This document shows, in pieces, positions 5,516 to 31,080 of a DNA stretch of 64,000 nucleotides (position 1 is its first letter; each line of letters opens with the position of its first letter). Source of the stretch: an uncultured virus (IMG/VR IMGVR_UViG_3300005405_000007) (taxonomy: Duplodnaviria > Heunggongvirae > Uroviricota > Caudoviricetes); IMG/VR virus record IMGVR_UViG_3300005405_000007; one strand, 5' to 3'. The notes beneath the pieces were generated by a model. It was not told where the DNA came from and made no database searches. It saw only the letters and a list, made by a program, of their open reading frames with translations. A program made the position numbers and the translations under genes.

Positions 5516-5899
5516 ATGCATAAATTTAAAGTAGGAGATAAAGTTAAAATAATAGACGCAATGAATCATGACAACATAGGAAAGATTGGAATTATTGAAC
5601 AACTTAGTAGTAGTTATCCATTGTGTTACAAACTTAAAATTGATGAGAAAAGTGGTTCGTGGGGAAACGCCTGGTTAGAAAGTTGTTTAGAGAAATTTGA
5701 TGAAACTAAAAACAATCAAATAGAAAAATATAATGTCAATATTACAATTGAAGTTAAAGACGGAATGGAATTTGATAGAAAATTTATTGATTTTCTTGAG
5801 ACTAATACAATTAATTATGAATTAGAATTAAAAAGAATTTATACTAAAGAAAAGGAAGAAATTATTAAAGGTTTAATTGGAGTAACAATCAGAAAATAA
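5516..5899 (+). CDS. Hypothetical protein with KOW/SH3-like N-terminus
   Basis: MHKFKVGDKVKII..GKIGII. Confidence 0.55.
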   Translation: MHKFKVGDKVKIIDAMNHDNIGKIGIIEQLSSSYPLCYKLKIDEKSGSWGNAWLESCLEKFDETKNNQIEKYNVNITIEVKDGMEFDRKFIDFLETNTINYELELKRIYTKEKEEIIKGLIGVTIRK

Positions 5900-5985
5900 T
5901 ACACTTCGAAATAGATATTTTATAGTCTTTTAGATATTGAAAGATAGAGAACGAATGAGTAAATGGAAGTATGGAGGAGATAAAA

Positions 5986-6759: not shown

Positions 6760-6908
6760 ATCAATTCAAACACGCATTTTAAATTAAATATATAAATTTT
6801 AACAGTAGAAAAATTAAATAAATAGGAGTATAATAGAATACAAGAGGTGTAAATCATGCAAGTAGAAATTATTCATACAAATGAAACATAACTGCTAAGC
6901 CTTAGCTT

Positions 6909-7073
6909 ATGCTAAAACAAGAAAATGCTTACAGATTGTTTGAGGAATTTCCTCATATTAGAAAAACTAAATTATGGGGTGGAAAGTTCTGGAGTGGAAG
7001 TAGTTTTGTTAGTACGGTTGGTAGTGTATCATTGGAAACAGTTAAACAATATATTGAAAATCAAGGAAAATAA
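6909..7073 (+). pseudogene. tnpA: IS200-type Y1 transposase, C-terminal remnant
   Basis: LFEEFPHIRKTKLWGGKFWSGSSFVSTVGSVSLETVKQYIENQ; HUH motif absent. Confidence 0.85.
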
Positions 7074-7118
7074 TTTTTGTAATTAATATACAAACATGAT
7101 ATAATAAATTAATGAAAG

Positions 7119-8571
7119 GTGGTGAATACTCTGTCTAATTTTGTTTTGACTCTTCCACTAAAAACAGAAAAATTTCAAGATGATGTCTTGGATAAGAATT
7201 TTGAGAAATGTAGAAAAATTTATAATGCTTGCATTACTGAATTGCATAAAAGATATAACCATATGAGAGAATCTAAAGAATACCAAAAGAATTGTAAATA
7301 TAAAGGTAAAGATAGAAATAAAATATTTAATACTTTGAACAAAAAGTATAAATTAACAGAGTATTCACTTCATGACTTTATTAAACCAATGGGAAAATAT
7401 TTTAATATTGATGCTATGACTGTTCAAAAAATTGCTACAAGAGCATTTAATGCTTTCCAAGGATTAATATTTCATAAAGCTAAAAAGATTAAATATAAGT
7501 CTTATGGTGAATTAAATTCCATTGAAGGAAAAACTAATAAACAAGGTATTAGGTTTAGAGATAATAATATATTGTTTGCAGGACTAAAAATTCCTGTGAT
7601 CATCAAGAAGAATGATATATATGTTCATATGTCTTTACAAAATAGAGTAAAATATTGCCGTATTAAACGAGAAATAATTAAAGGTAAATATCATTATTAT
7701 GTTCAGTTAGTTTTAGATGGAATTCCTCCAATAAAGATCAACAAAGATACAGGCGAAATTAAACATTATAATAATGATGGTGTAGTTGGTTTAGACATTG
7801 GAACCCAAACTGTAGCTTATTGTTCTAATAGTGAAGTCAAATTACTTGAATTAGTTCCAGAAGTACAAAATATTGAAAAGCAAAAGAGAGTATTACAAAG
7901 AAAAATGGATCGTTCCAGACGTTCTACTAATCCTAATAAGTTTAACGATAACGGTACAATTAATACCAAAGATAAAAACAAATGGATCAAATCCAATCAT
8001 TATATAAAAACTCAAATGAAGTTAAAAGAATTGCAACGAAAGCAAAGAGAAATTAGAAAGCAATCTCATAATCGACTTGCTAATTATATTTTAACATTGG
8101 GTAATGATATTAAGGTTGAGACAATGAGCTACAAGGGGTTACAAGCTAGAGCTAAGAATACTACTGTCGATAAAAAGACAGGTAAGTTTAACAAGAAAAA
8201 AAGATTTGGAAAATCATTAGCAAATAAAGCACCAGCTATGTTTTTGACTATATTGGACAATAAATTAAAATGGATTGATAAGAATTTAAAGAAAATTGAT
8301 ACTTGGAAAGTGAAAGCTAGTCAATATAATCATATTAATGACCAATTCACAAAAAAAGGAACTAGACGAAAGATGGAATGATTTTTGTGAATTTAAGATA
8401 CAGAGAGACTTATATAGCAGTTTTCTTATTATGAATGTTAATGATGATTTAGAAACAATTAATAGGGATTTATGTTTTGAGAAATTTCAAAGCTTTAAAG
8501 TTTTACATGATATTGAGATAGAGCGATTAAAAAATTCAGAGTTGAAAATAATGTTAAGGAATATATTTTAA
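7119..8571 (+). pseudogene. tnpB: TnpB RNA-guided nuclease, +1 frameshift in the A7 tract at 8351-8357
   Basis: RuvC motifs VGLDIG and IKVETMS; the third motif (QRDLYSSFLI) lies in the shifted frame 8338..8571. Confidence 0.85.
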
Positions 8572-8800
8572 AATATTAGATATTAAAAACAAGTCGAGAA
8601 TCGGGCTTGATACTAACGCCAATTTAGTTAATGGACTAATTGTTAGTGAAATTCTTATGGAAAATGATTAGTATTTATATGTTGTAGTTTATAGATGAGT
8701 ACAATACCTATAAATGAGAGTATAAAAGAAATTCATGAGTACATAAGAACCTGCCACGCTTTAGCGTGTGCAGAGGTTCGGATTTGAATTACCCATAATC
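8572..8800 (+). ncRNA. Putative TnpB omegaRNA (reRNA) with guide from the right flank
   Basis: About 200 nt between the tnpB stop and the right-end hairpin; position matches known omegaRNAs; 5' boundary uncertain. Confidence 0.55.
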
Positions 8801-10376: not shown

Positions 10377-10976
10377 TTAATTATGAGAAAATTAGTTTTA
10401 GATAATGGTATATGGTTATGGAGATATGTGAAGGGTACTGTTATAATAAAGAATCCCCAAGGTAAAAAATATTTAACGGACAAATCTGAGATAAGTGGAG
10501 TATCTTGGGAATCGTTTGATAATGGATATATGTTTGCAGTAACACCAAGTGTTATTAAAGATTGGATAGAAAAGAATTGTGTATAAATTTATTCTTTGGA
10601 TGGATTTTAAAATGAAAAGAGGATCGATTAACAATATATAATAAACTAACTCCGTTTATAAATTTCTTTAAAACTAAAAGAGTTAGAGATATTGCTGATT
10701 TAGTAGTTACCAAAATTGAAACATTAGAACAATATTATGTCCACAAATGCAGATATGCTGATGAATATGGAAAATCGTATATATCTGGCGACATTATTGA
10801 TTAAGAAATATTTAAAAGTTTATTGCTTCAAGCGAAAAGACCAATTGTATTAAGTGACATTTATGTTGACTTAAATCTAGAATAGTAAATAAAGCTTAAT
10901 ATAATTATTGAAAGAACATCTATATCATGTTAAAATAATTATATTAAGCTTTATATTCAAAAGGAGGAAGTACATA

Positions 10977-11444
10977 ATGAACATATTTGTCCTAGACTTA
11001 GACATTAAAAAATGTGCTGAATATCATTGTGATAAGCATGTTGTAAAAATGCTATTGGAAACATCACAAATTTTATGTAGTACTTATTACTTTACAAATG
11101 AATCTCACAAATCTCCCTATAAACTCACGCACAAAAACCACCCATGCTCCTTATGGACAAGAGAAAGTTTATCTAATTGGTTATGGTTAAGAAATTTGGG
11201 TCTAGCTTTATATGATGAATATAGAAAAAGATATGGTAACAAAGATCATAAATCAGGAGATGTTATTTTAGGTTTAGATGTTCCTAATTTGCCTGATAAG
11301 GGGTTAACGAAGTTTGCTCAAGCAATGCCAATAGAGTATAGGCATGAAGATGTTGTAAAGGCATATAGGGCTTATTATGTGGGTGAGAAGAAGGATATAC
11401 TACAGTATAAAGGGAATGTTCCTGAGTGGTTAAAGGTTAGTTAG
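10977..11444 (+). CDS. Pyrimidine-dimer DNA glycosylase / endonuclease V-like protein
   Basis: MNIFVLD..HCDKHVVKMLLETSQILCST..YKLTHKNHPCSLW..FAQAMP..AYRAYY. Confidence 0.8.
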   Translation: MNIFVLDLDIKKCAEYHCDKHVVKMLLETSQILCSTYYFTNESHKSPYKLTHKNHPCSLWTRESLSNWLWLRNLGLALYDEYRKRYGNKDHKSGDVILGLDVPNLPDKGLTKFAQAMPIEYRHEDVVKAYRAYYVGEKKDILQYKGNVPEWLKVS

Positions 11445-11460
11445 AAAGGATTGATAAATT

Positions 11461-14400
11461 ATGAAAACTTATATGACAGTTTTTATTCCAGAGTTGAATA
11501 TTATGCATACTGTTAGCAAAGATATTATTGAAATTGATTTTGATAATCCATTTAAAGTACATGGGAAGTCAGACAATTATTATACAGTCAATCCATATTT
11601 GTATTCTACAGGTGGTTATATTATTGATACAATAAGCAAAGCACAATTAGATGATTTAAATGTATATAAAAGTAGTATTGTTACCGATATGGAGCATCTT
11701 GGAAATATATTGGAAGATGAGATGAATATTCTTTATCATCAGTTAAATAATATAGGGGTTATAGTTACTTATACAGGTGATTGCAATGAATACGATGGTG
11801 AACAAATTGCAATTAATACAATGATTGAATATGTAGTAGAATTAAAAAAGATATGCCTTAATAGGCATTAAAAGTGTGGTTTTATCGGAAGGAGAAAATA
11901 TTTAATATGAATACAAAAGAATTTGAATTTATTGGAGATGTAAAGAGTTGGTCTGTAGATGGTTATAATTCAATTGACACACTTTATTTTGAAAAAGTAA
12001 TAAATGAATTTATTAGGAATAATGATATTACAAATTATACAGTAAAAGAAGTTTCTTGTATCCATAATGAAGGGAAATGTAAAGTCATAATGCGATTAAC
12101 ATGGAATGATAAAAATAAAGACTTTCAAAAGAAAGATGTTATTTCTGTCTTAAATGATCTTAAAAGTGAGGTTGTCCCAAGATTGAGTTTAGAAACAGGA
12201 CAAATAATTCCCGATATGAATGAAGAAGAAACGAAAAATATTACATTCAATGTTTAAATATAGCTGTTGAGTTAGTATCTAAATGCATGGAATGAAAAAG
12301 CAATTTGAATGGAGATAAAATGTGAAAATTTATAAATTAATTGGAATACTTGCGGATAGTGAAATTAGATTCATTAAAGGAGAATGGGAGTTTCATTAAA
12401 GAAACTAAAAATTATTTTGAAATTAAATCTGAAATGAGAACAAAAAGACTTAAGAAAGAAGAGTTGAATAAGATATTTTCGGATATTAACAATAATACTA
12501 AATATATCTCTTTTGCATGTTTTTGTGAAGAATGTAGTATTGTTGAAATAGAAGAAAAAATTCGTTTAAAATTAGAAGAAACTGTGAATCAATACCATGT
12601 AAATATTCAAGAATTAATGAAGGCGTTCCAATAAAATCTAGTTTCATTTGGCAATATGTCTTCATTTACAACTTTATAAATTAATTTAAATAGTTTATAA
12701 TGAACTTACTATATTAAAAAAGGAGTGTTATTATGAAAACTATGACAACTGATAAAGGTGAATACGTCTCTGTTCATAATCATAGAGGTATTGACATTTG
12801 GATTTTAAAAGAAACTAATCCATCTAAAGGCGATAGTCTCAAATATATGACTAAAACAATTTCAGGAGAAGAATATTTTAACACGGTTCAAGAGGCTGTA
12901 GATGTTATTGATAAGGATTGGGAATAATTTATTCCCAATCCCAACAAACGAGGAGTCTATGCTATTTTAAGGAGGAATTCTCATGAAACTTTTAGATGAT
13001 TATTTTACCATTCAAAAACAAATTTATGATTATTTTGGGTATGTCGATGATTGGAAAGTGATACCTCTTGATGATAGTAGGGAATATTTTTGGTATGAAA
13101 ACGCAAATGAAGTTTACTTTGCAAAGACAAAAGATGATTTCCAAACGGAAAAGTATTATAGTAATGAGATTTTTACCTATAGACATCTACCTAAGTTTGT
13201 TTATAGGGCAGAAGATTTTACTATGATTGTTGTGGATACTAATACAGATGGCAACAAATTTTTACAAATATTTGATAATAATAAAGAGTTAACAAATAAT
13301 CCGATAGACGAATAAAACTAATAATTGATAGTATTGGAGGGGGTATAATTAATGAATATCAATGATTTAAAAGAAAAGATTGATAATTTAATTGAAGATG
13401 GATATGGTAATTTAGAAATTTATAAAGATAGAGGAGATGGATGTGCAGATAGAATTATAAAATTACGTTTTCAATTGTTATATGAAGGTAAATTTTATCC
13501 TACAGACAGGGAAAATAATATGTATAAGAATATATTAGATCCTAGAATAGAAAATATTTTTAAATATGGGGAATGGGTGGTTAGATTTTTGTAAACACTT
13601 TAAAACTTTGATTTCGAGGAAGGAGTGATAAACAATTATGTGGATTGTTGGACATGATATGGATTATTATCCTAGAATTTATAAATTTGAAAAAGAATTA
13701 GACGCAATAGAAAAGTATAATGATATTAAAGAAGATATCATTATAGGTGAGCATCCAGATAATGATTCATGTGTATTTATTGCAAAAGTTAATAAGTATA
13801 TGAAAGGGAGTGATTATGAATTAATCGACGATAAAACAAATGAAGAAATTAATGAATAGAATACTCATTTTAATCAGTTTTTTAACAAAGAGGTGGTATA
13901 TTAATGTTCTTATTATTATATTTTGTATTGATTGCCCTGTTTTATGGATTTTCAAACAATTATGGGTTTCATATTAAATTTAATAAAGTTAAAGTGATAT
14001 CTACAATCATATTTGCGATAATAACTATGCCGTTACCCATTTATCATAATGATCTTTCAAAATTATTTTGACTTTTAAACCTTAACAATATATACTATAA
14101 GTAGAAAATAAAAATACGGAGGGAATACATAAATGGCTAACAAAACAAAAGCAGAGACAAAAATGAGGAACACAAAAAATGATAAGAAAGTACATATTTG
14201 TCCGGCTTGCCATAGTGAAAAAACAAACAAAGTGACACTCACAACGTGGTTTTGTATGGATTGCGATGTAGAATTCGATTCCACAGATAAGGTATATACA
14301 ATTCAATGGGATGGCACTTTGGTCGATCATTATGTTAATGAGTTTATTAATTGTGGATAGGAGTGAGAGATCTGTTTTGTCCTAAATGCAAAAGACTTCA

Positions 14401-16227: not shown

Positions 16228-19200
16228 TTGAGGATATTAACATTATTTAGGGGTGCTCCAGCTTGTGTAGACTGTGACACGGAATATTTTAATGGAGTAG
16301 AATGGAAAAGAATATCAGAATATACTGAAGGAGATAAAGTTTTACAATATAATGACGACGGAAGCTCTGAGTTGGTGAGTCCCTTGGAATATCACAAATA
16401 TAAAGAAGACAATTTGTATTTAATTCAAACACAAGGAGTTAGTCAATGTGTTTCTTTGGATCATAATTTAGTATATATAAGTTCAAAAGGCAATATAAAT
16501 AAAAAAGTTTTTTCAGATGTTTATAAACAACATTTAAAAAACAATCATGGCTTCAGAGGAAAATTTATAACTACTTTTAATACATATGGTAATGAAAATT
16601 CAGAACTTAACGAATTTGAATTAAGATTGACAGTTGCTATTTGTGCAGATGGCAATTATCCTAGAGACACCAATAGATGTAGAATAAGAATTAAAAAACA
16701 AAGAAAAATAGAAAGAATAAGATTTTTATTAAATAAATGCAATATTGATTTTGAAGAAAAAATATACAATGAGACAAATGTTGAAGGGTACATTAATTTT
16801 ATGTTCAAATCACCATTGAGAATAAAAAATTTTCCTCATAATTGGTATAACCTATCGAGAAAGTGTTTAGATATAATTAGTGATGAATGTATAAAATGGG
16901 ATGGTTCGATTAATAAACAAGACAACTCAATTGCTTATTATACTACTAATAAACAAGATGCTGATTTTATTCAATATGTTTTTTCATCTACTGGTTATAA
17001 AAGTGGTATATCTATTGATGAAAGAGAAGACAAACCCATTACTTATCGTGTGAGTAAATGTTCTTATAATTTGGTAGGAATATCTACAAAAGGGAGAGAA
17101 GAATATAAGGATAAAATAATTAAAGAATATAAAACACTAGATGGACATAAGTATTGTTTTACTGTTCCAAGTGGTATGTTGGTTTTACGAAGAGATGGTC
17201 ATATAAATATTACTGGTAATTGTGGCAAGAGTACATTTATTAAAGATAATAATTTAGAACAATATGCTTTAAGTGCAGACAATATTAGGTTACTACTACA
17301 GTCTCCCATAATGACTACTGACGGAAGGTATGGAATTAGTCAAAAGAATGATAAAAAAGTTTGGGAATTGTTATTTGATATTCTAGAACAAAGAATGATT
17401 CGTGGAGAATTTGTAGTTGTTGATGCAACTAATTCTAAAACAGTTGAATTAAATCGATATAAAAGTATGGCAGAAACATATAGATACAGAATCATTTGTG
17501 TTGATATGACAGATGTTCCTATTGAAGTTTGTAAAGAAAGAAATCAAAATAGGAAACCTGATTATAAAGTAGTGCATGATTTTGTAATTGACAATATGTA
17601 TGCTAGATTTGAGTCTCAAAAGATTTCTAGTGGAGTAAAAGCTATTAAACCAGAAGAATTTTGGGACACAATTACATATTCACCTTTAGATTTTTCTAAT
17701 TATAAAAAGATTCATCATATTGGAGATTTGCATGGATGTAATACCGTCTTGCAAGAATATTTAGGTGGAGAATTAAAAGAAGATGAACTATATGTATTTG
17801 TTGGTGATTATGTTGATCGAGGAATTGAGAATGTAGAATTACTTAATTACTTGTTTTCAGTTATGGATAAATTAAATGTGATATTTTTACAAGGGAACCA
17901 TGAATGTTTAGCAAAAGGAACTGAAATACTTACAAAAGATGGCTGGAAAGTTATAGAAAATATTACAAAAGAAGATGTGGTGGCACAATATGACCTCATA
18001 TCAAAAGAAATTAGTTTTGATAACCCAATTGAAACAATTAAAAAAGAATCAAATACTATAATCAATTTCAATAGTCATAATATCAGACATAAGGTTACGC
18101 CTAATCATGATATAATATATAAAGGAGAAAAAGTTAAAGCAAAAGATCTTTTGAATAAACATAATTTAGAAGAACGTGATTTTACTCTATGGGGGTATAC
18201 AAATGATAATGTAGTTAATATAGAAGATGATTGGATTAGATTATTAACATGGGTAATAATGGATTCTACAATTGTGGATAATATAAAAGGTAATCCAAAT
18301 TCTATTAAAAAGAGAATCCAATTTAAATTTAGCAAAGAAAGAAAAATAAAAAGTGTTAAGCAATTGTTGGATAGAATGGACATACCTTATACTTTTCAAA
18401 AAGCAAAAATGAGTGACTTAAATAGAGTACAACCCTATTACATAAGAATATATGGAGAATATGCTAGAGATATATTCAATAAAATACATAATGAAAGATT
18501 AATACCTAACGAATGGAAATACTTTAATCAAAGACAAGTGTCTATATTTTTAGATACATTAATAAAATCAGACGGATATTTAAAAGCCAATAATATTGAG
18601 TGGAGAACAATTAACAGTCAAAATATAGATATTGTTCAAGAAATGTGCGTAAAAAACGGAATTATTTGTAAATATGATTATAAAGAAGGAAGTGGTTTTT
18701 CTAATGGAAAATATCAATATGTTGCGAGTATATTTTATTATGGAAGTGTTAACCATCCAGTAACGGTTACGGAAGAAGAATATAATAATTTGACTTATTG
18801 TTGCACAATGTCTAAAGGAACTTTGATTACTAGACTTGATGGTAGGGTTATTATTACTGGTAATTGTCATTTGTGGGACTATTCTAACGACATGCCAACA
18901 AAGAGTAAAGAATTTGAGCAAGTTACCAAAAGAGAGTTGAATAAATTGCAAATAGATAAGAAGAAATTAAGAATATTCTATAGAAAATTAAGACAGTTGG
19001 CATATTATACATATAATAATAAAGTAGTAGTTGTTACTCATGGTGGTATCAGTACAATACCAGAAAGATTTGAATTTCTTGCCACAGAACAATTGATCAA
19101 AGGAGTTGGAGAATATAAAGAAATGGAAATGGTCAATGGTAGATTTCTTAATTCAACTCCAAATAATTATTACCAAATCCACGGTCATAGGAACGTGGCA

Positions 19201-20349
19201 GATTCTCCAATTCAAATCAATGAAAGATGTTTTTGCCTCGAAGGAAAATGTGAGTTTGGAGGGTACTTAAGGATTGTCACATTAGATGACAAAGGATTTA
19301 ATACTATTGAGGTTAAAAATAATATCTTTAAGCCTATTGAAGAGAAAATTGAATCAATTAAATCCGAAGAGATTGTAGTTTCTAATATGGAATTAATAGA
19401 GAAACTAAGAGCGAATAGATATGTCAGAGAATCTAAATTCGGTCACATATCTTCTTTTAATTTTACAAAAGATGCATTCTATAAAAATATATGGGATGAA
19501 CAAACTATAAAAGCGAGAGGATTATTTTTTAATATTGAAACTGGAGAAGTGGTAGCTCGTAGCTATGAAAAATTCTTTAACGTCAATCAAAGAGAGAATG
19601 TCAAACTAGATAATCTTAAAAATGTATTCCAATTCCCTGTAACGGCATGGGTAAAATACAATGGGTTCTTAGGTTTAGTAGGGTATGATTCTAGTCGAGA
19701 TGAATTATTAATTAGCTCAAAATCAAATCCTAATAGTGAATTTGCAGGATATTTTAGAGATATATTTAATGATACTCTTACTCTAGACCAGCAATCAGAG
19801 ATAAAGGAATATCTCAAAGAACAAAAATCAACTTTAGTATTTGAAGTAATTGATCCCACTAATGATCCTCATATGATTAAATATATTTTCCCTCATTTAG
19901 TATTATTAGAAATTGTAGAGAATGATATCAATGAACCAAAGAAAAAATCATATGAAGAAATACAGTTGTTTTCAAATAAATATAATATACCTTTGAAAGT
20001 AAAAGCAAAGATATTAGATAATTGGAGAGAATTCTATCAATGGTATGAAGAAGTAACCGCAGATGACTATAAATATAAGGGGCAATATATCGAAGGATTT
20101 GTTTTAGAAGATAATGTTGGATTTATGACTAAAATAAAATTGCAGTATTATGGTTTTTGGAAACATATGAGAAGTGTTAAAGAGGACGTTTCTAGGAATG
20201 GATATACTAAATATACTAGTTCTTTAGCCACACCTCTAGCTAATGAGTTTTATGGATGGTTAAGGCATCAAACTAAAGAAGTATTAAGGAAAGATATTAT
20301 TACACTTCGAGAGATGTTTTATACTGAAAAAGGAGAATATAATAATTGA
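16228..20349 (+). CDS. Polynucleotide kinase / metallophosphoesterase / RNA ligase (Pnkp-like RNA repair enzyme) with two inteins; about 734 aa after splicing
   Basis: Spliced P-loop GAPA|CGKST, VVDATN; phosphoesterase GDLHG, GDYVDRG, GNHE, THGG, HGH; ligase ARGLF, YEKFFN, KYNGFLG, EGFV. Confidence 0.92.
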   Translation: MRILTLFRGAPACVDCDTEYFNGVEWKRISEYTEGDKVLQYNDDGSSELVSPLEYHKYKEDNLYLIQTQGVSQCVSLDHNLVYISSKGNINKKVFSDVYKQHLKNNHGFRGKFITTFNTYGNENSELNEFELRLTVAICADGNYPRDTNRCRIRIKKQRKIERIRFLLNKCNIDFEEKIYNETNVEGYINFMFKSPLRIKNFPHNWYNLSRKCLDIISDECIKWDGSINKQDNSIAYYTTNKQDADFIQYVFSSTGYKSGISIDEREDKPITYRVSKCSYNLVGISTKGREEYKDKIIKEYKTLDGHKYCFTVPSGMLVLRRDGHINITGNCGKSTFIKDNNLEQYALSADNIRLLLQSPIMTTDGRYGISQKNDKKVWELLFDILEQRMIRGEFVVVDATNSKTVELNRYKSMAETYRYRIICVDMTDVPIEVCKERNQNRKPDYKVVHDFVIDNMYARFESQKISSGVKAIKPEEFWDTITYSPLDFSNYKKIHHIGDLHGCNTVLQEYLGGELKEDELYVFVGDYVDRGIENVELLNYLFSVMDKLNVIFLQGNHECLAKGTEILTKDGWKVIENITKEDVVAQYDLISKEISFDNPIETIKKESNTIINFNSHNIRHKVTPNHDIIYKGEKVKAKDLLNKHNLEERDFTLWGYTNDNVVNIEDDWIRLLTWVIMDSTIVDNIKGNPNSIKKRIQFKFSKERKIKSVKQLLDRMDIPYTFQKAKMSDLNRVQPYYIRIYGEYARDIFNKIHNERLIPNEWKYFNQRQVSIFLDTLIKSDGYLKANNIEWRTINSQNIDIVQEMCVKNGIICKYDYKEGSGFSNGKYQYVASIFYYGSVNHPVTVTEEEYNNLTYCCTMSKGTLITRLDGRVIITGNCHLWDYSNDMPTKSKEFEQVTKRELNKLQIDKKKLRIFYRKLRQLAYYTYNNKVVVVTHGGISTIPERFEFLATEQLIKGVGEYKEMEMVNGRFLNSTPNNYYQIHGHRNVADSPIQINERCFCLEGKCEFGGYLRIVTLDDKGFNTIEVKNNIFKPIEEKIESIKSEEIVVSNMELIEKLRANRYVRESKFGHISSFNFTKDAFYKNIWDEQTIKARGLFFNIETGEVVARSYEKFFNVNQRENVKLDNLKNVFQFPVTAWVKYNGFLGLVGYDSSRDELLISSKSNPNSEFAGYFRDIFNDTLTLDQQSEIKEYLKEQKSTLVFEVIDPTNDPHMIKYIFPHLVLLEIVENDINEPKKKSYEEIQLFSNKYNIPLKVKAKILDNWREFYQWYEEVTADDYKYKGQYIEGFVLEDNVGFMTKIKLQYYGFWKHMRSVKEDVSRNGYTKYTSSLATPLANEFYGWLRHQTKEVLRKDIITLREMFYTEKGEYNN
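16264..17220 (+). mobile_element. Intein 1 (319 aa) with LAGLIDADG-type endonuclease, in the kinase P-loop
   Basis: Starts CVDCDTEYF, ends HINITGN|C; LTVAICADG block. Confidence 0.9.
17905..18864 (+). mobile_element. Intein 2 (320 aa) with LAGLIDADG-type endonuclease, after the phosphoesterase GNHE motif
   Basis: Starts CLAKGTEILTKDGW, ends RVIITGN|C; FLDTLIKSDG block. Confidence 0.9.
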
Positions 20350-23001: not shown

Positions 23002-23135
23002 TAATTAGAATGTAATTTTGATTGCAAGTAATAGTTATACAATATAAATAAAATTTTTATAAAATAATAGGTATATTGGACAAATTATTGGTCATAATAC
23101 TAATCATAAGAAAATAAAAAGGAGTGATTAGTATT

Positions 23136-23543
23136 ATGAAACAAACAATAAATAATGTTCAAGCTCAAAAAGAGATTAAGAGGGGCGATATCTATATTGC
23201 AAATCTTCCCAACAGTAATGGATCTATCCAACAATTTAAGCGTCCCGTAGTGATAATTAGCAACAACGCCTGTAATCAATATTCCAATGTACTACATATA
23301 TGTCCTTTAACTTCTGTGACCACAAAATCAAAATTACCTACTCATATACCCATCAGTAGAAATTCTGGCCTAAAAATGGATTCTATTGCTCTCTGCGAAC
23401 AGTCCATGCCAGTCACGAGAGATTTGATTGAAGAAAAAATAGGACAATGCGATGAGGAAACTATGTTAAGAATTGATAGAGGAATCGGTATACAGTTTGG
23501 ATTGGTAGAATTAAGAAATAAAAATGGTGTAGTTTATGCATAA
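23136..23543 (+). CDS. mazF: MazF/PemK-family endoribonuclease; no adjacent antitoxin recognised
   Basis: IKRGDIYIANL..KRPVVIISNN..N..S..PLTS..KLPTHI..DSIALCEQ. Confidence 0.9.
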   Translation: MKQTINNVQAQKEIKRGDIYIANLPNSNGSIQQFKRPVVIISNNACNQYSNVLHICPLTSVTTKSKLPTHIPISRNSGLKMDSIALCEQSMPVTRDLIEEKIGQCDEETMLRIDRGIGIQFGLVELRNKNGVVYA

Positions 23544-23574: not shown

Positions 23575-25191
23575 TTGACTAAGAAAACTAATAAGAAGAC
23601 AACAGAACAATATAAACAAGAATTAGAAGAATATAATTTAAAATATGATACAAATATAAAGTTAAAAGAAGGAGTTGAATATATTGGTGCTAATACTAAA
23701 ATACTACATACTTGTACGTGCGGCAAGGATTGGTTAGTCAGTCCTTCTGGTATTATAAATAGAAAATCTAAAAGTAGTTGTGGATTGTGTTATACATTCG
23801 CAGAATGGGGGATAGATAATTTAGGAGAAGATTTTCTTAAAGAATATTGGGATTATGAGAAGAATAATGAATTAGGCATTGATCCTTGGAAAATTAATTA
23901 TAATAATTACAAAAAATTTTATATCTTTTGTAGAAAGAAAAACTATCATGGAAGTTATCAAATTAGTGGTTCGGATTTTATAAGAGGTAATAGATGTAGT
24001 TATTGTAAAGGACAAAATTCTGTACATCCTAAAGATAGTTTTGGACAATTTTTAATAGATTCGTTTGGTGTTACTGCGTTAGAATTATATTGGGACTATG
24101 ATAAAAATACAATTGACCCTTTTAAATACACTAAATATACTAATAGAAAAGTTTGGATTAAATGCCAAGAAAAAGATTACCATGGGAGTTATGATATTCT
24201 TTGCGGAGAATTTATTAGTGGAGGGAGGTGTGGGTATTGTAATTCGCGTGTAAAAGTACATAAATATGATAGTTTAGGATATTTATATCCTCAAACAATA
24301 GAAATTTGGTCTGATAAAAATAATAAATCTCCATATGAATATACCCCAGGAAGCAGTACAAAAGTTTGGTGGAAATGTAAAGAGTGTAAACATGAAGATT
24401 ATCCACAAATAATATATAGTGCAAAAAATTGTAATTTTGGATGTCCTGAATGTGTAAGAGAAAAAGTAGAGTCTAGAATGGCAACAACGCTTAAACAAGT
24501 ATTTAAGCATGAAGATCATGATACAAAATGGGAATATGATATAGGATTTAGAACAGATAAAAATGGTGTAAGCAAATATGATATTTATGTTCCAAGATTA
24601 AATCTATTAATAGAATGTCAAAGCGAATATCATGATGATGAAATACATATGGCGCGAGATAAACTTAAAAAGCAATTTGCAATAGATAATAAATATAATT
24701 ACATAGATTTAGACCACAGAGATTATTCTCCTTTGGAAGCAATACAGATGTTTTTCCCATATATTAAAGAAATGCCAGAATATATTGATGATAGTAAAAA
24801 TACAAGAAGAGATTGGGACGTAGAAGAAGCACAAAGATTATTAGATAATGGTTATAATTTTGATGAAGTTGCTGAATATGTAGGAGCAACTAAAGGTGCT
24901 ATAAGTTATTCAATTTGGAACAATATCTTAATTAAACCAGATGATTATCATCAAACAGGAACTATAAAAATTATTTGTTTATCTAAGGATTATAAATTTG
25001 TTAAACAATATAATTCTGTGAGAGATGCAACAAAAGATTTAGGTCTTGCGAATAACTCTGCAATTAGTAGTTGTTTGACCAAGAGGATAAGATCAGATAC
25101 TAATAAAGTTCGTGAGTTTGCAAAAGGTTATAGATGGATGTATTTGGTAGACTATGAGAATATGATTAAAAAAGATGATGAACCTCCGTAA
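23575..25191 (+). CDS. Zinc-ribbon-repeat putative homing endonuclease with a Vsr/DUF559-like nuclease and NUMOD1-like C-terminus
   Basis: Repeated YWDY.KN..DP..KVWxxC..H..CxxC units; YDIYVP..LIECQSEYH; YNSVRDATKDLG..AISSC..AKGYRW. Confidence 0.7.
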   Translation: MTKKTNKKTTEQYKQELEEYNLKYDTNIKLKEGVEYIGANTKILHTCTCGKDWLVSPSGIINRKSKSSCGLCYTFAEWGIDNLGEDFLKEYWDYEKNNELGIDPWKINYNNYKKFYIFCRKKNYHGSYQISGSDFIRGNRCSYCKGQNSVHPKDSFGQFLIDSFGVTALELYWDYDKNTIDPFKYTKYTNRKVWIKCQEKDYHGSYDILCGEFISGGRCGYCNSRVKVHKYDSLGYLYPQTIEIWSDKNNKSPYEYTPGSSTKVWWKCKECKHEDYPQIIYSAKNCNFGCPECVREKVESRMATTLKQVFKHEDHDTKWEYDIGFRTDKNGVSKYDIYVPRLNLLIECQSEYHDDEIHMARDKLKKQFAIDNKYNYIDLDHRDYSPLEAIQMFFPYIKEMPEYIDDSKNTRRDWDVEEAQRLLDNGYNFDEVAEYVGATKGAISYSIWNNILIKPDDYHQTGTIKIICLSKDYKFVKQYNSVRDATKDLGLANNSAISSCLTKRIRSDTNKVREFAKGYRWMYLVDYENMIKKDDEPP

Positions 25192-25238: not shown

Positions 25239-25802
25239 ATGATTGAAACTGTTTTCTTATCTTTTTTAGTTGCCAAATGGAATAACTATAAAATACTTCC
25301 TATTTTTAAAAAATGGAGTATTTACCCTGTTATGTTTATGGTGCTTCTATACATTTATCTTGAATCGACAATTTGGCAAGGTGATTATTCTTTAGTTAAA
25401 TATACATATTTATTTAAAACTGTTTATTTAAGTTGTTTCTTATTATTGGCGATATCTTATAATAAAATGAAGTTATATTTTTGTTTTATTCCTCTTGTTT
25501 GGATAGGTAGTATACTTAATACAATTGCAATAAGAGCTAATTCAGGGAAAATGCCAGTATTTTTTTCTAACTCATGGGCAACTGGATATGCAAAACATGA
25601 TATGTTTGTTAAAGCATTACCGTATGGAGACTATCATATAATGGGAGATGAATTTACAAAAATGATACCGCTTTGTGATGTGTGGGATTTCGGATGGTGT
25701 TGTATGTCGCCAGGGGATTTAATATTCAGATCGTTTGTATTTATAATTACTTACAATTCCATAAAAGCGTCCAACCAAATACATATAATAAACAAAATAT
25801 AA
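25239..25802 (+). CDS. DUF5317-like membrane protein
   Basis: Hydrophobic; GSILN..ANSGKMPV and LCD..SPGD motifs. Confidence 0.7.
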   Translation: MIETVFLSFLVAKWNNYKILPIFKKWSIYPVMFMVLLYIYLESTIWQGDYSLVKYTYLFKTVYLSCFLLLAISYNKMKLYFCFIPLVWIGSILNTIAIRANSGKMPVFFSNSWATGYAKHDMFVKALPYGDYHIMGDEFTKMIPLCDVWDFGWCCMSPGDLIFRSFVFIITYNSIKASNQIHIINKI

Positions 25803-25811
25803 AATTATTTA

Positions 25812-25841
25812 TTGACTTATATACTTTGCATATGGTATAAT
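25812..25841 (+). promoter_or_regulatory. SigA promoter for receptor-agrD
   Basis: TTGACT-18-TATAAT with extended TG. Confidence 0.7.
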
Positions 25842-25893
25842 TATCCTAAGATAAATAATAAGATAAATAATAAGAGATAGGGAGTAGATACAT

Positions 25894-26724
25894 ATGCAAA
25901 GTACAATTAATGCCTTATTAAACATGTTTTTAGTAAGTTTACCAGAAGAATTGTTCGTTGTAGCAATAGTATTAATAGGTATAAGTAGAGATGATTTATT
26001 AGATATCAGAATGTGGAAAGATAATATAAAATGGGTCGCTTTACCAGCAATTGGAATGTCTTTTATAATAAGTTTTGCAAGATTAACAAATATTTCAAAA
26101 TCTATTGCCCAAATAACTGGTATACTAGTATTATATTTATTAACATTAGTTGTTATAAAAAATAATAATTTACTTCAAGAGAAGATTAAATACTTTAAAG
26201 CATTGTTTTATACAATATTAGGAATTTTCATTATTTCAATATTAGAATGCTACTACCCGTTAATATTATCTCTCACAAAAACAAATATCTTATACATAAA
26301 CTCCAACTTTATTTTGAATTTTTTATGTTCATTACCAGCAAGAGTAATAGAATATTCTATATTGACATACTTAATAGTAAAAAAAAGTGAAGATGTAAAA
26401 ATTAAGTTATTTGATATAATACTAAAAAATAGTTTCTTAAAAAGATCAATGTTTAGTTTATTGATAGGTATAATGATTACAATGATTTACTTAATTAAAC
26501 TAATAGGAATAGATTTAATTTTAATAAATTTATCGTTTTTTGAACAATTAATTATAGTAGTTATGATGTTTATTATCCCGACGATTACTATAACATTTAT
26601 ATTATTAATAGTTAATTATATCCTAAAAGTTGAAAAAAGAATACACCAGACATACGAAAATCTTGCTACGCAGGATATAGTAATGGATGATGTAAAAATT
26701 AATGAAAAAGGAGGTGAATTCTAA
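25894..26724 (+). CDS. Multi-pass membrane protein resembling an AgrC/VirS sensor domain but lacking the kinase domain
   Basis: About 7 hydrophobic segments and a short C-terminal tail; no H-box or GHKL; stop overlaps the agrD start (TAATG). Confidence 0.6.
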   Translation: MQSTINALLNMFLVSLPEELFVVAIVLIGISRDDLLDIRMWKDNIKWVALPAIGMSFIISFARLTNISKSIAQITGILVLYLLTLVVIKNNNLLQEKIKYFKALFYTILGIFIISILECYYPLILSLTKTNILYINSNFILNFLCSLPARVIEYSILTYLIVKKSEDVKIKLFDIILKNSFLKRSMFSLLIGIMITMIYLIKLIGIDLILINLSFFEQLIIVVMMFIIPTITITFILLIVNYILKVEKRIHQTYENLATQDIVMDDVKINEKGGEF

Positions 26725-26843
26725 TGAAAAACAAATATACTATTATTGCAGGATGTCTTATCACAATTGCTACAGTATGTTCCTTATGTTTAGCTTCCGC
26801 AATGTGGAGTTATCAACCAGAAACCCTTAAATGTTTCGAATAA
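26724..26843 (+). CDS. agrD: AgrD-like cyclic autoinducing peptide precursor (39 aa, not in ORF track)
   Basis: MKNKYTIIAGCLITIATVCSLCLASAMWSYQPETLKCFE; AAGGAGGTG RBS; clostridial [CS]xxxx-[YH]QPE pattern; agrB 1 kb downstream. Confidence 0.88.
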   Translation: MKNKYTIIAGCLITIATVCSLCLASAMWSYQPETLKCFE

Positions 26844-26855
26844 GTTCATATTACA

Positions 26856-26883
26856 TATAGGGAAGGCTACGGTCTTCCCTATA
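26856..26883 (+). terminator. Hairpin after agrD
   Basis: TATAGGGAAG-8nt-CTTCCCTATA. Confidence 0.6.
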
Positions 26884-26921: not shown

Positions 26922-26951
26922 TTGACATACATATCCATTGTAAGATATAAT
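26922..26951 (+). promoter_or_regulatory. Consensus SigA promoter for HTH-mazF-agrB
   Basis: TTGACA-18-TATAAT. Confidence 0.7.
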
Positions 26952-27012
26952 TATATTATTAAATACCGAATATTGAAATATCTTACTAAAAATAAAAAGG
27001 ATGTGTATTGAT

Positions 27013-27804
27013 ATGTTTAACAAATTAATTACTAGGAAATCTAATACTGAGGAAAATGCTAAAAAAGATTTTAAGAAACTTGCAAATTACGTTATACTTG
27101 CAAAAGGTAATAGATCAATTGATAATTTTGCAGCAGATTGTAAGGTTAGCGGGGATTATATGGAGGGTGTAATTAAGACTAAAATGTCTACATACCCAGA
27201 TATAACATTTCTAAAGGTAATTTCTGATAATTCTCAAGGGCGAGTTTCGTTTAAGGATTTGACTTTGGCTTGTGGATATTCTAATTATACAAATAATGAT
27301 TTAGAAAAAATTAGAAATATAAAAATAGAACGTGGAGGAATATATTTTTGTAATTTTTCTGACAGTGGGATTGATTCAGAGGTGATAGGACATCGACCTG
27401 TGCTCGTGGTGCAAAATCCAAAAGGTAATTTATTCAGTAGTAACACAAAGGTTTTAGCAATAACTAGTCGTGTAGGCAGTAAACCGCCATTACCGACTCA
27501 TGTTTTTATAGGAAAGGAGCATGGTTTAAGATGTGATTCTATCATTTGTTGTGAATTAGAAGACACAATCAGTAAAAGAAGATTAATTTCAGGATCAGGA
27601 GTAGTAGAAAAAGTAGCAGAATGTTCGAAAGAATTAATGATGAAAGTTGCCGTTGGACTTGGTAAGGCAGACGGATATATTCCTTTAGATGTTCCTGAAA
27701 AGTTTGCTATTGAAGTTCTAGAAACTTTTAACAAAGAGAGAACACAAAAAACATTTCAATATCAAAATAACTATAATACAGGGAGGCAAGTAGCATTTGC
27801 CTAA
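27013..27804 (+). CDS. XRE-like HTH fused to a MazF/PemK endoribonuclease domain
   Basis: N-terminal AKGNRSIDNFAADCKVS..YPDITFLKVI..VSFKDLTLACGY; C-terminal IERGGIY..SEVIGHRPVLVVQN..AITS..LPTHV..DSIICCE; alternative start 27001. Confidence 0.82.
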   Translation: MFNKLITRKSNTEENAKKDFKKLANYVILAKGNRSIDNFAADCKVSGDYMEGVIKTKMSTYPDITFLKVISDNSQGRVSFKDLTLACGYSNYTNNDLEKIRNIKIERGGIYFCNFSDSGIDSEVIGHRPVLVVQNPKGNLFSSNTKVLAITSRVGSKPPLPTHVFIGKEHGLRCDSIICCELEDTISKRRLISGSGVVEKVAECSKELMMKVAVGLGKADGYIPLDVPEKFAIEVLETFNKERTQKTFQYQNNYNTGRQVAFA

Positions 27805-27820: not shown

Positions 27821-28528
27821 ATGAATCTAATTCAAATTATATCAAATAATTTAGCTCATAAAATGGTAAAGAAAGTACCATTAGATCAAATTGAATATGC
27901 TTGGGGATGGATCGCAGGGGTATTTCCACAACTCTCTCATAAGTTTAATATTAAAAAAATAAAAACCACTGAAGAACTTATAAGCGTATATAGTCTAGCA
28001 TTCATGTTTCCTGTTGGTGCGGTATTTAAAGGTTTATTATTAGTATTGTTGTCATTAATCTTGGGAGTCTTTTCACCTGCCATTGTAGTAGTCTTAACTT
28101 TTATGTCTTTAAGACCAATGGCAGGTGGATATCATTTTAAAACATATAATAAATGTACAGTAATATCTTTAATTCAATTCATTACAACATCGCTAATAGT
28201 AAAATACACTCTCCAATATTGGCCATTTTTAGGAATTTGGTATTTATTTATTTTTTGTGTTGTTATGACATTATATATAGTTTATCGCTATATTCCAAGA
28301 GACACGCCAAATAAACCAATTGCAGAACAATTAGAACGTCATAAATTTAAACGATGGTCATTATATTATTTATCCATATGGGCCGTATTAATGACCATCT
28401 TCTTGCTCTTTAATATAAAAATAATTGTCATATCAAGTTGTTTCGGTTTACTTTTAGAGTTGCTAAGTATTTCTAATATAGGTTATAATTATATCTATCC
28501 CTTACTAGACTCAAAACAAAAACCTTAA
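27821..28528 (+). CDS. agrB: AgrB accessory gene regulator B (autoinducing-peptide processing membrane peptidase)
   Basis: LRPMAGGYHFKTYNKC catalytic His/Cys motif, PRDTPNKPI, multiple TM segments. Confidence 0.92.
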   Translation: MNLIQIISNNLAHKMVKKVPLDQIEYAWGWIAGVFPQLSHKFNIKKIKTTEELISVYSLAFMFPVGAVFKGLLLVLLSLILGVFSPAIVVVLTFMSLRPMAGGYHFKTYNKCTVISLIQFITTSLIVKYTLQYWPFLGIWYLFIFCVVMTLYIVYRYIPRDTPNKPIAEQLERHKFKRWSLYYLSIWAVLMTIFLLFNIKIIVISSCFGLLLELLSISNIGYNYIYPLLDSKQKP

Positions 28529-28665: not shown

Positions 28666-28717
28666 TGATACATATTGATACATATTGATACATATTGATA
28701 CAAATTACATGTATCAA
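28666..28717. repeat. Four tandem 10-bp repeats ending in a palindrome; putative operator
   Basis: (TGATACATAT)x3, then TGATACA-AATTACA-TGTATCA, just upstream of the RBS of 28746. Confidence 0.75.
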
Positions 28718-28745: not shown

Positions 28746-30095
28746 ATGAAGCAAGACCGTCAAAAACTTGAAGATGTTTTAGATTTAATCGTCGAAGAAT
28801 ATTCAGTTGATACTAAGATTCAAGAAAAGGTTATTTCTAAGTTGATTGAAAAAGGAATTAGTCGAGGTAGAACTACTGGTATATTTACCAAAGTAACTCC
28901 ATTAGTATATCTCACAGAAAATGAATTATGTTTATTTGTAAAACATCTTTATGAATTTACACATGAATTAAAAATCAAGCCAAATGAGTGGTTTACTGAT
29001 ATTGAATTATCATATGCAGATTCATATCAAAAAACCGAAGAAGAAAAAGTAAAATATATTATGTTACACAATGTTGACCAAATCAGCGAGTCTCAATGGT
29101 TGTGTACAAAAGAAACTTATCAAAATATTGGTTTGTATATGGGAAATGGATTATTAACATATAACCCAAACACCCAAAGACCACTCCAGAAAAGGAAAAG
29201 TGGAAACAAAATAATTGAATCCATTGATATTGACCCAGATAAAGTTGCTGAAATCGCCAACTCTATGTTAAATAATACGTTTTGCCCCAATGCCATAACA
29301 TGGAATATACGCAAGATAAAAGGCATTCAGAAATTTAAATATGATAGTAAAGCAAGAACCTTATTAATTGAACCTGATGGTATATCTACGTCAGTGGACA
29401 TAATTGACGGAGCAAATCGGACAGGGGGAATGCTAAAATGCATTGAAAAAAGTAAGGACATTCAGAGGGTAACTAGTATTTATATTCATCATGTTACAGA
29501 AGAAAGAGCGAATGAAATAATTGAACAAGAAAGTTTGGCAGCACCCATCCCACCGGAATCCATCCAGTATAAAAGTTCTAGCAATATTAATATGTTAACT
29601 GCAAGATCAATTAATGAAAAGCAAAAGAAAAATGAAATGTTTAACCGCATTGGATTAAATGAACAAGAGCTAAAAGTTGAAAATAAACTAGTTACGTTTG
29701 ACACTTTGTCAAAAACGATTGATTATGTATATGATTTAAAAAATTTACCTATTACAGAGTCAGAAAATGTAGAAGAGTTTTTAATAAAACTTTTTAATAT
29801 TTGTATTGGTGTAAATTATGAATCTTTTAACAGTAAATTAACTGAAGCGAGAGAGAATTCATATGTTTCATCAAACAATATGTTTATTGGATATGTTGTT
29901 TTAGGTGAATTAGTTAAACAAAAATATGGTGATGATTGGAAAAATCAATTGACTAAAATATTAAAAACTTTAGACTTTAGCAAAACAAACGATATTTGGA
30001 AGAAAATTGGTATTGAAAACAATGTCAACAAAAAAACAATGGATAAAATATCTGACTATTTTAAATCTATTGTTGCTCAATGGGAGGTTCAATAA
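28746..30095 (+). CDS. SPbeta YopQ/SroE-like protein (DndB/DGQHR-like fold)
   Basis: YNPNTQR, PNAITWN, DIIDGANRT (DGQHR-like); size and position before an MrpR-like gene match the SPbeta repressor operon. Confidence 0.65.
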   Translation: MKQDRQKLEDVLDLIVEEYSVDTKIQEKVISKLIEKGISRGRTTGIFTKVTPLVYLTENELCLFVKHLYEFTHELKIKPNEWFTDIELSYADSYQKTEEEKVKYIMLHNVDQISESQWLCTKETYQNIGLYMGNGLLTYNPNTQRPLQKRKSGNKIIESIDIDPDKVAEIANSMLNNTFCPNAITWNIRKIKGIQKFKYDSKARTLLIEPDGISTSVDIIDGANRTGGMLKCIEKSKDIQRVTSIYIHHVTEERANEIIEQESLAAPIPPESIQYKSSSNINMLTARSINEKQKKNEMFNRIGLNEQELKVENKLVTFDTLSKTIDYVYDLKNLPITESENVEEFLIKLFNICIGVNYESFNSKLTEARENSYVSSNNMFIGYVVLGELVKQKYGDDWKNQLTKILKTLDFSKTNDIWKKIGIENNVNKKTMDKISDYFKSIVAQWEVQ

Positions 30096-30096
30096 A

Positions 30097-31080
30097 ATGG
30101 ATCATAAATTATTTAATGAAGATCGTAAAAATTGCTTCTTAAATGAGAAATATCCAAATGAATCAACCAGATCAACAAACACTTCTATTTTAAGAAGCGT
30201 AGGAAGATTTGAGTATGAACTAGATAAAGATTTGTGTAGTTTTAGTTACGAAGAAATTAAAGACTTATTAATTGGAATGAAAAAGAAATCTCTTAGATCA
30301 ATGGGTGTAGCTTATGCAATTATTATGCAATATTTAGACTGGTGCTGTTTGGATAAACACTATTCTTCAATGAATGTTTTGAAACTAGTCAACAAGGAAG
30401 ACTTAAAAAAATACATCCATAAAGTTGCTCAAAAAAATTCATTTATTTCAAGAGATCAAATGTATGACTACTGCAACAGACTCCACAACTACGTTGACAA
30501 AGCATTAATAGCATTACTATACGAAGGAATAAGAGGCAGAACTAAAGAGGGATTTTCCTATGAAGAAATAAGAAATCTCAAAAAGACTGATCTTATTCCA
30601 GAATTTAATATAGTGAATGTTATTAAAGACCCCGATGACTTAATTAAAAATCCTTCACCAAGAAAAGTTCAAGTGGATCAAAGAACTATGGATATCCTAA
30701 TAGCAGCATCTAAGGAAGAATATTATCATAAATCAAATGGTGATGCAACAGACACATTTTCTATTTTACCACTAAAGGATACCCCCTTTATTATTAGGTC
30801 TATGGACGTATTCTTTAGCGATGATGATAGAATGACTCCAGGAAATATTAGTTCAAGATTTAGAAATTTTAGAAGTTATTTAAATGTAAAGTTCTTAACA
30901 CCAACTCTTATATTTAAAAGTGGTTTATTAGATAAATGCTTATCAATGGAGAAAGAATTAGGGGAATTGAAGCCGGATCACTTTAAACAACTATACAGGA
31001 ATTTAGAATTGGATGAAAGAAATGGCAACTCTTTAAAGGAAATGTATGACAGTTACAAAAGTAGTCTAACCCCAAAGTAA
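30097..31080 (+). CDS. MrpR/YopR-like phage repressor with tyrosine-recombinase fold, probably catalytically inactive
   Basis: FEYELDKDLCSFSYEEI SAM-like N-domain; ALIALLYEGIRG..EEIRNLK; HxxR replaced by PTLIFKSG; GGAGG RBS before ATG 30097. Confidence 0.75.
   Translation: MDHKLFNEDRKNCFLNEKYPNESTRSTNTSILRSVGRFEYELDKDLCSFSYEEIKDLLIGMKKKSLRSMGVAYAIIMQYLDWCCLDKHYSSMNVLKLVNKEDLKKYIHKVAQKNSFISRDQMYDYCNRLHNYVDKALIALLYEGIRGRTKEGFSYEEIRNLKKTDLIPEFNIVNVIKDPDDLIKNPSPRKVQVDQRTMDILIAASKEEYYHKSNGDATDTFSILPLKDTPFIIRSMDVFFSDDDRMTPGNISSRFRNFRSYLNVKFLTPTLIFKSGLLDKCLSMEKELGELKPDHFKQLYRNLELDERNGNSLKEMYDSYKSSLTPK

Follow-up and report, generated by a model that had tools for sequence, protein, structure and literature searches.

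A kinase-less seven-transmembrane protein as candidate cognate receptor of a proposed agr-type, MazF-linked lysis-lysogeny signal in SPbeta-like clostridial phages

The window, meaning the whole stretch of 64,000 nucleotides that was analysed (G+C 28.7%), is part of a 94-kb virus record (IMGVR_UViG_3300005405_000007) that is 56% complete. The genes and sites around the candidate receptor gene are as follows.

23124..23543, + strand: mazF1, stand-alone MazF/PemK-like ribonuclease (PF02452, E 9.7e-25)
23575..25191, + strand: homing-endonuclease-like ORF with DUF4379 zinc fingers, an insert outside the core
25239..25802, + strand: DUF5317 membrane protein (PF17248, E 1.9e-15)
25812..25841, + strand: sigma-A-type promoter candidate of the receptor-agrD unit (TTGACT-18-TATAAT, extended TG; 11/12 consensus)
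25889..25894, + strand: TACATA between the receptor ribosome-binding site (RBS) and start codon (overlaps the start codon in 10/19 loci)
25894..26724, + strand: kinase-less seven-transmembrane (7-TM) protein, candidate cyclic-peptide receptor (ORF, family profile, model, covariation)
26724..26843, + strand: propeptide of the AgrD type, its ring predicted as SAMWS, followed by YQPE (positional orthologues, aligned motif)
26852..26883, + strand: TACATA (26852-26857) just before a conserved hairpin (26856-26883) closing the receptor-agrD unit (alignment)
26922..26951, + strand: sigma-A promoter candidate for HTH-mazF-agrB (TTGACA-18-TATAAT, 12/12, best of 55)
27001..27804, + strand: HTH-MazF, a probable N-terminal HTH plus an EndoA-type MazF domain (PF02452)
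27821..28528, + strand: AgrB peptide cyclase (PF04647, E 3.3e-33; intact R...GG.H...C)
28746..30095, + strand: SroE/YopQ homologue, SPbeta lysogeny co-repressor (tblastn to phi3T_96, similar to yopQ, E 1e-11)
30097..31080, + strand: MrpR/SroF/YopR homologue, SPbeta master repressor (PF22822, E 7.8e-18; PF22823, E 1.6e-8)

Scans of viral sequences gave 12, 20 and 9 loci. After removal of repeats of one contig or identical loci (L005, L006, L046) and of a locus at a contig end (L057), 19 distinct loci including the window remained. The TM gene, agrD and HTH-mazF form an adjacent triad in all 19, and HTH-MazF is the sole invariant neighbour besides agrD. Among the loci found via HTH-MazF, the TM gene lies upstream in 19 of 20, the other being broken by the contig end. 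AgrB is encoded in 19/19 loci, at varying positions, with its catalytic motif intact in each; DUF5317 and stand-alone MazF are found in 17/19 and 16/19, respectively, within the flanks fetched. The product of mazF1 keeps the active-site Arg and Thr/Ser in the alignment and has a C-terminal ...VYA end. The insert following mazF1 differs or is missing in related loci. DUF5317, which we take to resemble LspA, was considered as an LspA-like leader peptidase, a role that is unsupported: the model has a pLDDT of 70 and a best Z of 5.6, with no LspA among the matches listed. The promoter candidate at 25812-25841 ranks second among 55 sites (by consensus match only), and that at 26922-26951 is conserved in the alignment of loci. 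Since promoter-like sites precede both the receptor gene and HTH-mazF, the arrangement suggests two transcription units, receptor-agrD and HTH-mazF-agrB.

Some further features of these loci should be noted. In 8/19 loci (L003, at 10764-11597, L004, L010, L012, L055, L056, L058 and L059), a second receptor paralogue with no agrD of its own lies behind agrB or HTH-MazF, and L001 retains a remnant of one; it is possibly an eavesdropping receptor. An unrelated 52-kb prophage (L029) also has a homologue, near its integrase: the genes at 5552-8770 are, in order, an XRE-like gene, the long-tail homologue, AgrD and a serine integrase, with no agrB beside them within the 8.8 kb fetched. One metagenome contig also has a homologue followed by AgrD. 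Elsewhere in the window, a 1373-aa ORF (16228-20349) is, from its translation only, apparently a kinase/phosphatase/RNA-ligase-type enzyme with two intein-like inserts.

The ORF at 25894-26724 (+) encodes a protein of 276 aa, to which Pfam, NCBIfam and PHROG assign no family. The initial annotation described a gene fused to agrD, encoding about seven TM segments and a tail of ~35 aa. The two genes are in fact separate ORFs overlapping by 1 nt. The receptor stop codon TAA (26722-26724) has one base in common with the agrD ATG (26724), and the agrD RBS, AGGAGGTGA at 26709-26717, lies inside the last codons of the receptor gene, as had been described. The AlphaFold2 model, based on a 136-sequence alignment (pLDDT 95), consists of seven long helices (residues 2-29, 38-64, 69-90, 100-128, 139-165, 180-206 and 215-273); a hydropathy scan with a strict cut-off gave five segments only. 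The family means of Lys plus Arg are 4.3, 2.7, 5.5 and 3.6 in loops 30-46, 89-101 and 163-185 and in the tail, and 0.3-1.1 in loops 1-9, 63-71, 126-140 and 203-216. This alternation across the family fits seven TM segments with the N terminus outside and the C terminus inside, so that the annotated number of segments holds, as does the tail, which comprises residues ~243-276 (34 aa). The tail shrinks to ~10 residues in L055, L056 and L059. SxPEE and PxR are conserved as intramembrane motifs. Fold searches of the PDB with the model gave nothing significant, the best match of the wide search being Pex3 (Z 8.3, rmsd 3.6, 146 aligned). The BFVD search returned two uncharacterised phage proteins (TM 0.61-0.64 of target, E above 1), and PDB sequence searches were empty. 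The predicted complex of tail residues 240-276 with the HTH-MazF dimer scored 0.29 against a mark of 0.32, a value that speaks neither for nor against contact. The tail was also considered as a MazE/AimX mimic, and this idea was left aside: the match to AimX, in register at Tyr, has a weak post hoc score (p ~0.04), the PDB search with the tail profile returned no MazE, and one clade does not keep the tail.

The overlap with agrD had been taken as an argument against accidental truncation. The overlap itself is a weak argument, being found in 3/11 of the first distinct loci (the window, L001 and L011), but the absence of truncation is evident from the family. All 26 close homologues are 269-279 aa long (search window, 151-483 aa), and none of 7999 candidates of 490-2000 aa is a longer homologue. 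A profile search without length limit among 1.84 billion representatives gave 224 matches, of which the best 150 are ≤326 aa. No kinase domain was found with Pfam in the 100 homologues scanned or with NCBIfam in the 136 scanned. About 58 relatives carry a helical hairpin tail of 50 aa, and those with a known source are L029 and L030. Whether homologues are uniformly kinase-less had been left as a question in the initial annotation, and in the homologues examined they are. Because the length is the same down to ~20% identity, no full-length form is seen and the gene is intact in 19/19 loci, the receptor is, on the evidence of its sequence family, a whole protein and not a truncated one. LytTR (PF04397) and HATPase_c_5 (PF14501) are absent from the 94-kb record, as far as this 56% complete record extends, and neither these nor a receiver domain occur in five related phage records, two of which are rated 100% complete. 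The annotated lack of an AgrA/LytTR gene in the window thus extends to the whole record and to its five relatives, and the complete relatives hold no further receptor candidate. Two pattern scans of low sensitivity found no homologue in GTDB genomes, and INPHARED phages and plasmids contain no receptor homologue.

The similarity to AgrC was examined with an alignment of 11 kinases of the HPK10 type, drawn from phiCDHM1, from plasmids and from a single database match, excluding the Cache-type kinase L024. Against the full kinases, hhalign aligned the receptor family colinearly over 190 columns with a probability of 67% (E 5e-5). The long-tail relatives extend this alignment into the AgrC DHp, with Glu at the phospho-His column; the tail-to-DHp match by itself has a probability of 2.5%. 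Against the AgrC sensor alone the score is 25.7 (probability 6%), compared with ≤20.5 for 60 block shuffles, ≤17.0 for 40 column shuffles, 13.6 for the reversed profile, and 14.9 and 15.2 for the unrelated membrane families AgrB and DUF5317. A 17-sequence alignment gave no match to the AgrC sensor, which is also absent from the fold matches of the receptor model. These profile scores suggest that the receptor likely descended from an AgrC-like sensor. As in AgrC kinases, a candidate sensor of 6-7 TM segments with the C terminus inside is encoded with agrD and agrB (19/19 loci). The HATPase_c catalytic domain and the phosphorylatable DHp His are both missing, and no cognate LytTR response regulator is found in the record or its five relatives. 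By sequence, therefore, the receptor is not a member of the AgrC kinase family.

The rings of the AgrD peptides provide another line of evidence. The AgrD of the window falls below the TIGR04223 cut-off, and 4/4 positional orthologues tested are above it. Ring positions were assigned by the clostridial AgrD rule, as the five residues that begin with Ser or Cys and precede [YHFN][QE][PS], and the predicted rings are different in 19/19 loci. Ring similarity correlates with receptor similarity with rho 0.72 (outer segments, 0.74; inner segments, 0.63; 19 loci). Net of the AgrD leader, the AgrD tail, HTH-MazF and AgrB, the partial rho is 0.42 (Mantel p 0.0005, the p-values being inflated by the relatedness of the 19 loci), while given the receptor, the values are 0.02 for HTH-MazF and ring and 0.07 for AgrB and ring. 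Thus the predicted rings follow the receptor, not AgrB or HTH-MazF. Within the main clade, the margin is small (receptor-ring 0.60 vs HTH-MazF-ring 0.55). Adjacent genes recombine together, and the AgrD leader too is tracked by the receptor (partial 0.44), so that linkage may contribute. The phages L001 and L011, otherwise almost identical, differ mainly in receptor and ring: HTH-MazF, SroE and MrpR are 92%, 97% and 95% identical, respectively, whereas the receptors are only 67% identical and the rings differ. The covariation with the ring gives real support for a receptor identity. The interpretation in the initial annotation is partly supported: the condition set for refuting it, full-length kinases among close homologues, did not hold, and the ring covaries with the receptor. 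The profile likeness to AgrC is weak, and PDB and BFVD gave no fold match. We regard it as probable that the 7-TM protein is the receptor for the AgrD-derived peptide.

HTH-MazF follows agrD in 19/19 loci and has the invariant Arg and Thr in its MazF domain, the best match of its profile being B. subtilis EndoA (4mdx, E 2e-25). Its N-terminal domain is weakly HTH-like (phrog_18248, E 6.7e-5; hhalign to XRE, 1.5%). The conserved MazF tails (...VA[FY]A and ...AYAN; 23520-23543 and 27780-27804 in the window) presumably recall SsrA- or Spx-type Clp protease degrons.

B. subtilis MazF is reported to cut at the 6-mer UACAUA, a site conserved in the other Bacillota tested (bioRxiv 2026.08.06.743204), and UACAUA enrichment in phi3T and SPbeta genes has been published (bioRxiv 2023.04.27.537455). 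The site was initially counted as the 5-mer TACAT, which had drawn attention by its place ahead of the hairpin behind agrD and which in mrpR is the most depleted of 1024 (2 vs 17.6 expected); the phi3T control lacked the 5-mer pattern, and the test was then switched to the 6-mer TACATA following the published site definition. Across 11 loci, TACATA occurs 102 times in 137 other ORFs against 42.7 expected (rank 1/4096) and 46 times in the cassette genes against 16.3, but only once in sroE plus mrpR against 12.8, in an over-called 5' end. The reverse complement is neutral in these loci. Scored against codon usage alone, the sroE plus mrpR depletion ranks 10/4096. The enrichment was repeated over whole records (67 vs 31.8; 90 vs 51.6). 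In 8 new loci, sroE and mrpR again have no site (0 vs 6.7 expected), whereas the enrichments in the TM gene (8/3.6) and the HTH gene (6/3.3) are equalled by the reverse complement (9/5.9 and 6/3.7) and are not strand-specific. The coding regions of sroE and mrpR in the window contain no TACATA. Besides the site before the receptor start codon, TACATA lies ≤45 nt past the agrD stop codon in 15/19 loci. In phi3T, TACATA is absent across the sro operon and occurs 13 times elsewhere in 12 kb, once 21 nt past aimP. The site-free sro region is also found in phi3T, c-st and Perkons, all of which lack the TM-agrD-HTH/MazF cassette. Since cassette-less phages share it, the pattern shows that this family of phages uses a MazF logic but does not show that the receptor drives it, and the cutter of UACAUA may be host MazF. 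The invariant neighbour HTH-MazF and the placed UACAUA sites on the receptor-peptide mRNA together lend indirect, sequence-level support to a MazF link of the receptor.

Three tandem 10-nt repeats, each with TACATA, lie upstream of sroE in the window (28669-28694), and the sroE leader has one TACATA in L001, L002, L004, L010 and L011; in L004 and L010 a hairpin comes after this site, ahead of the RBS. MazF could act on the sroE mRNA by processing it without destroying it. Another 6-mer, ATAACA, is strongly avoided on the coding strand of 67 ORFs in the record of the window (G000; 4 vs 35.9, reverse complement 33 vs 41.3). It is not avoided in this way in G001 (53 vs 65.8), and is low in several loci. 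A second ribonuclease may have ATAACA as its target.

The cassette lies directly upstream of sroE and mrpR, a position that the initial annotation had missed, and the order in phi3T is aimR-aimP-aimX and then sroE-sroF. By gene order, the cassette occupies the aimR-aimP-aimX slot of phi3T. All ORFs between mazF1 and sroE were assigned, and none is RRNPP, AimR or AimP; AimX and SroA-D were not seen at the locus. By its gene content, then, the cassette is not arbitrium. Its phylogeny is uncoupled from that of sroE/mrpR (rho ~0). Among loci L001-L067, sroE/mrpR are of two divergent types (~25% identity), swapped independently of the cassette. The botulinum phage c-st was considered as a cassette carrier and rejected, having only a MazF-like gene near yopQ/yopR: in L014 (5225-9419), this gene lies two genes upstream of TACATA-free yopQ/yopR homologues, and there is no agr cassette.

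We propose, with a probability of roughly 0.55, that SPbeta-like clostridial phages have a lysis-lysogeny signal built on agr chemistry, that the 7-TM protein is its cognate receptor, and that it acts through MazF without a kinase. AgrB would cyclise AgrD into a pentapeptide initiated by Ser or Cys, building up with the number of infections. From peptide binding onward we infer the steps. The 7-TM protein would bind the peptide outside the cell in the manner of an AgrC sensor and, instead of autophosphorylating, would alter its grip on a partner in the cytoplasm, for which the co-inherited HTH-MazF is the likeliest candidate. HTH-MazF might be held by membrane sequestration, as LRS inhibitors hold LytTR regulators. 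UACAUA cleavage by phage and/or host MazF would then rise with the signal, the sign being set by analogy only. MazF would cut lytic mRNAs and, as feedback, the receptor-agrD mRNA while sparing sroE-mrpR, so that the repressors would win and lysogeny would follow at high infection density, with the same end logic as in phi3T arbitrium. That the receptor-peptide system acts on lysis-lysogeny at all is reasonably likely, and the odds that its output runs through MazF and needs no host kinase are about even or slightly better. More speculatively, these phages could have a second phage communication system of independent origin, in which arbitrium was replaced by an AgrB-made cyclic peptide and a kinase-free 7-TM receptor at the cell surface that directly gates phage MazF, sparing repressor mRNAs, with private dialects and, in some, a second eavesdropping receptor; we hold this wider picture only tentatively.

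A cognate receptor might instead signal via a host partner, either an AgrC/VirS-type kinase, the receptor being split or a pseudokinase, or another regulator, with MazF acting in parallel. The longer relatives (~58), whose hairpin aligns with the AgrC DHp and has Glu at the phospho-His position, are in line with this, as are the proposal of host response regulators for phage agr in Hargreaves 2014 (PMC3901668) and the MazF pattern in phages without the cassette. However, the phage clade has lost even the DHp-like hairpin, the tail-to-DHp match is weak by itself, and HTH-MazF is within the cassette in every locus. A host partner is therefore unlikely, though the strongest of the competing explanations. 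In another scenario, the protein would be a helper in maturation, export or immunity of the peptide (a leader peptidase, an exporter or self-protection), with the sensor elsewhere. Co-transcription with agrD, the tracking of the AgrD leader, the SxPEE and PxR motifs, which could be catalytic, and the lack of an identified fold would all suit a helper. The tie between ring and TM protein (0.60), however, is stronger than that of the leader (0.44) or of AgrB; the colinear AgrC-sensor similarity exceeds all controls, and complete relatives offer no other receptor candidate. We judge a helper role rather improbable.

The initial annotation also suggested a decoy that binds peptide or poisons host AgrC. 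As a peptide sponge or dominant-negative against host agr sensing, with the phage peptide acting on host receptors, such a jammer would agree with a receptor devoid of an output domain, and the second paralogue in 8/19 loci could broaden the peptides bound. The distinct ring of each phage tracks its own receptor, which argues for private signalling and not jamming, and the gene sits in the lysogeny module, likewise in the unrelated prophage L029; the decoy is accordingly less likely still than a helper. An accidentally truncated or decaying agrC is hardly credible: the weak AgrC similarity makes ancestry from such a kinase probable, but the constant length to ~20% identity, the lack of full-length forms among the best 150 of 224 matches and the intact gene in 19/19 loci speak strongly against a relic. 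The cognate receptor of a kinase-free signal acting through MazF thus remains our preferred reading.

The cassette is real and conserved, and combines known parts in an undescribed circuit. No published description of a TM-agrD-HTH/MazF cassette was found in the literature searched, whose coverage largely leaves aside subscription papers and preprint supplements. In the literature examined, every lysis-lysogeny signal of phage origin that has been characterised relies on a receptor of the arbitrium type, and since 2014 phage agr genes have gone without an assigned function; the cassette offers a concrete, testable one. If the proposal is true, the phi3T repressors and MazF logic would run on a different chemistry, a case of convergent evolution of viral quorum sensing in which viruses count each other before choosing killing or hiding. 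Cyclic-peptide receptor signalling without a kinase would also fill a gap among agr systems; agrC/agrA are absent from many agrBD loci of clostridia. The 19 natural receptor-peptide pairs and reporters for EndoA-like MazF, which exist in B. subtilis, make direct tests feasible.

Comparison with known systems places the receptor among several precedents. AgrC/VirS (HPK10) is a polytopic sensor adjoining agrD and agrB, and the receptor is so too, with weak colinear profile similarity, but no relative examined has the DHp His or an ATPase domain. The agr3 locus of phiCDHM1 (PMC3901668) resembles the cassette in being phage-borne and without a phage response regulator. Unlike the phiCDHM1 AgrC, a full kinase of 453 aa, the receptor is tied to MazF and SPbeta repressors. 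The Brevibacillus phages Emery, Davies and Abouo have membrane proteins without a HATPase domain beside agrBD, according to the same source (PMC3901668), and this combination of phage agrB-agrD with kinase-less membrane proteins is the published precedent for the cassette anatomy. The Emery proteins gp53/gp54 (221-222 aa) have no significant similarity to the receptor family, and the protein partnering them has LytTR alone (PF04397, E 0.0016, below the cut-off), with no MazF or sro genes. The Emery locus (L016, 18813-21224) consists of two membrane proteins, agrB, an agrD-like peptide and the LytTR-only protein, and has the appearance of an agr signal coupled to a pair of the LRS kind; the literature searched contains no functional test of the Emery, Davies and Abouo proteins. 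In the LytTR Regulatory Systems (LRS; HdrRM and BrsRM), a membrane protein inhibits a cytoplasmic regulator in a phosphorylation-free manner (PMC6193735), which provides a model for the proposed kinase-free output. The cassette has no LytTR protein, none being found in its own or related records, whereas LRS have no AgrB/AgrD. The closest parallel in position is arbitrium of phi3T, as portrayed in three preprints (bioRxiv 2023.04.27.537455, 2025.11.27.690993 and 2025.11.23.689978). Both systems occupy a common slot upstream of sroE-sroF homologues, both have diverse private peptides, and in both UACAUA is enriched in phage genes, absent from repressor genes and present just 3' of the peptide gene. 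The peptide of the cassette would be cyclic and AgrB-made, whereas that of arbitrium is linear and re-imported; a candidate membrane receptor stands in place of the cytoplasmic RRNPP antiterminator AimR, and the cassette phages encode two MazF proteins where phi3T arbitrium uses host MazEF. Taken together, these comparisons suggest that the receptor would act in the manner of an AgrC sensor whose signal goes into a switch of the arbitrium type.
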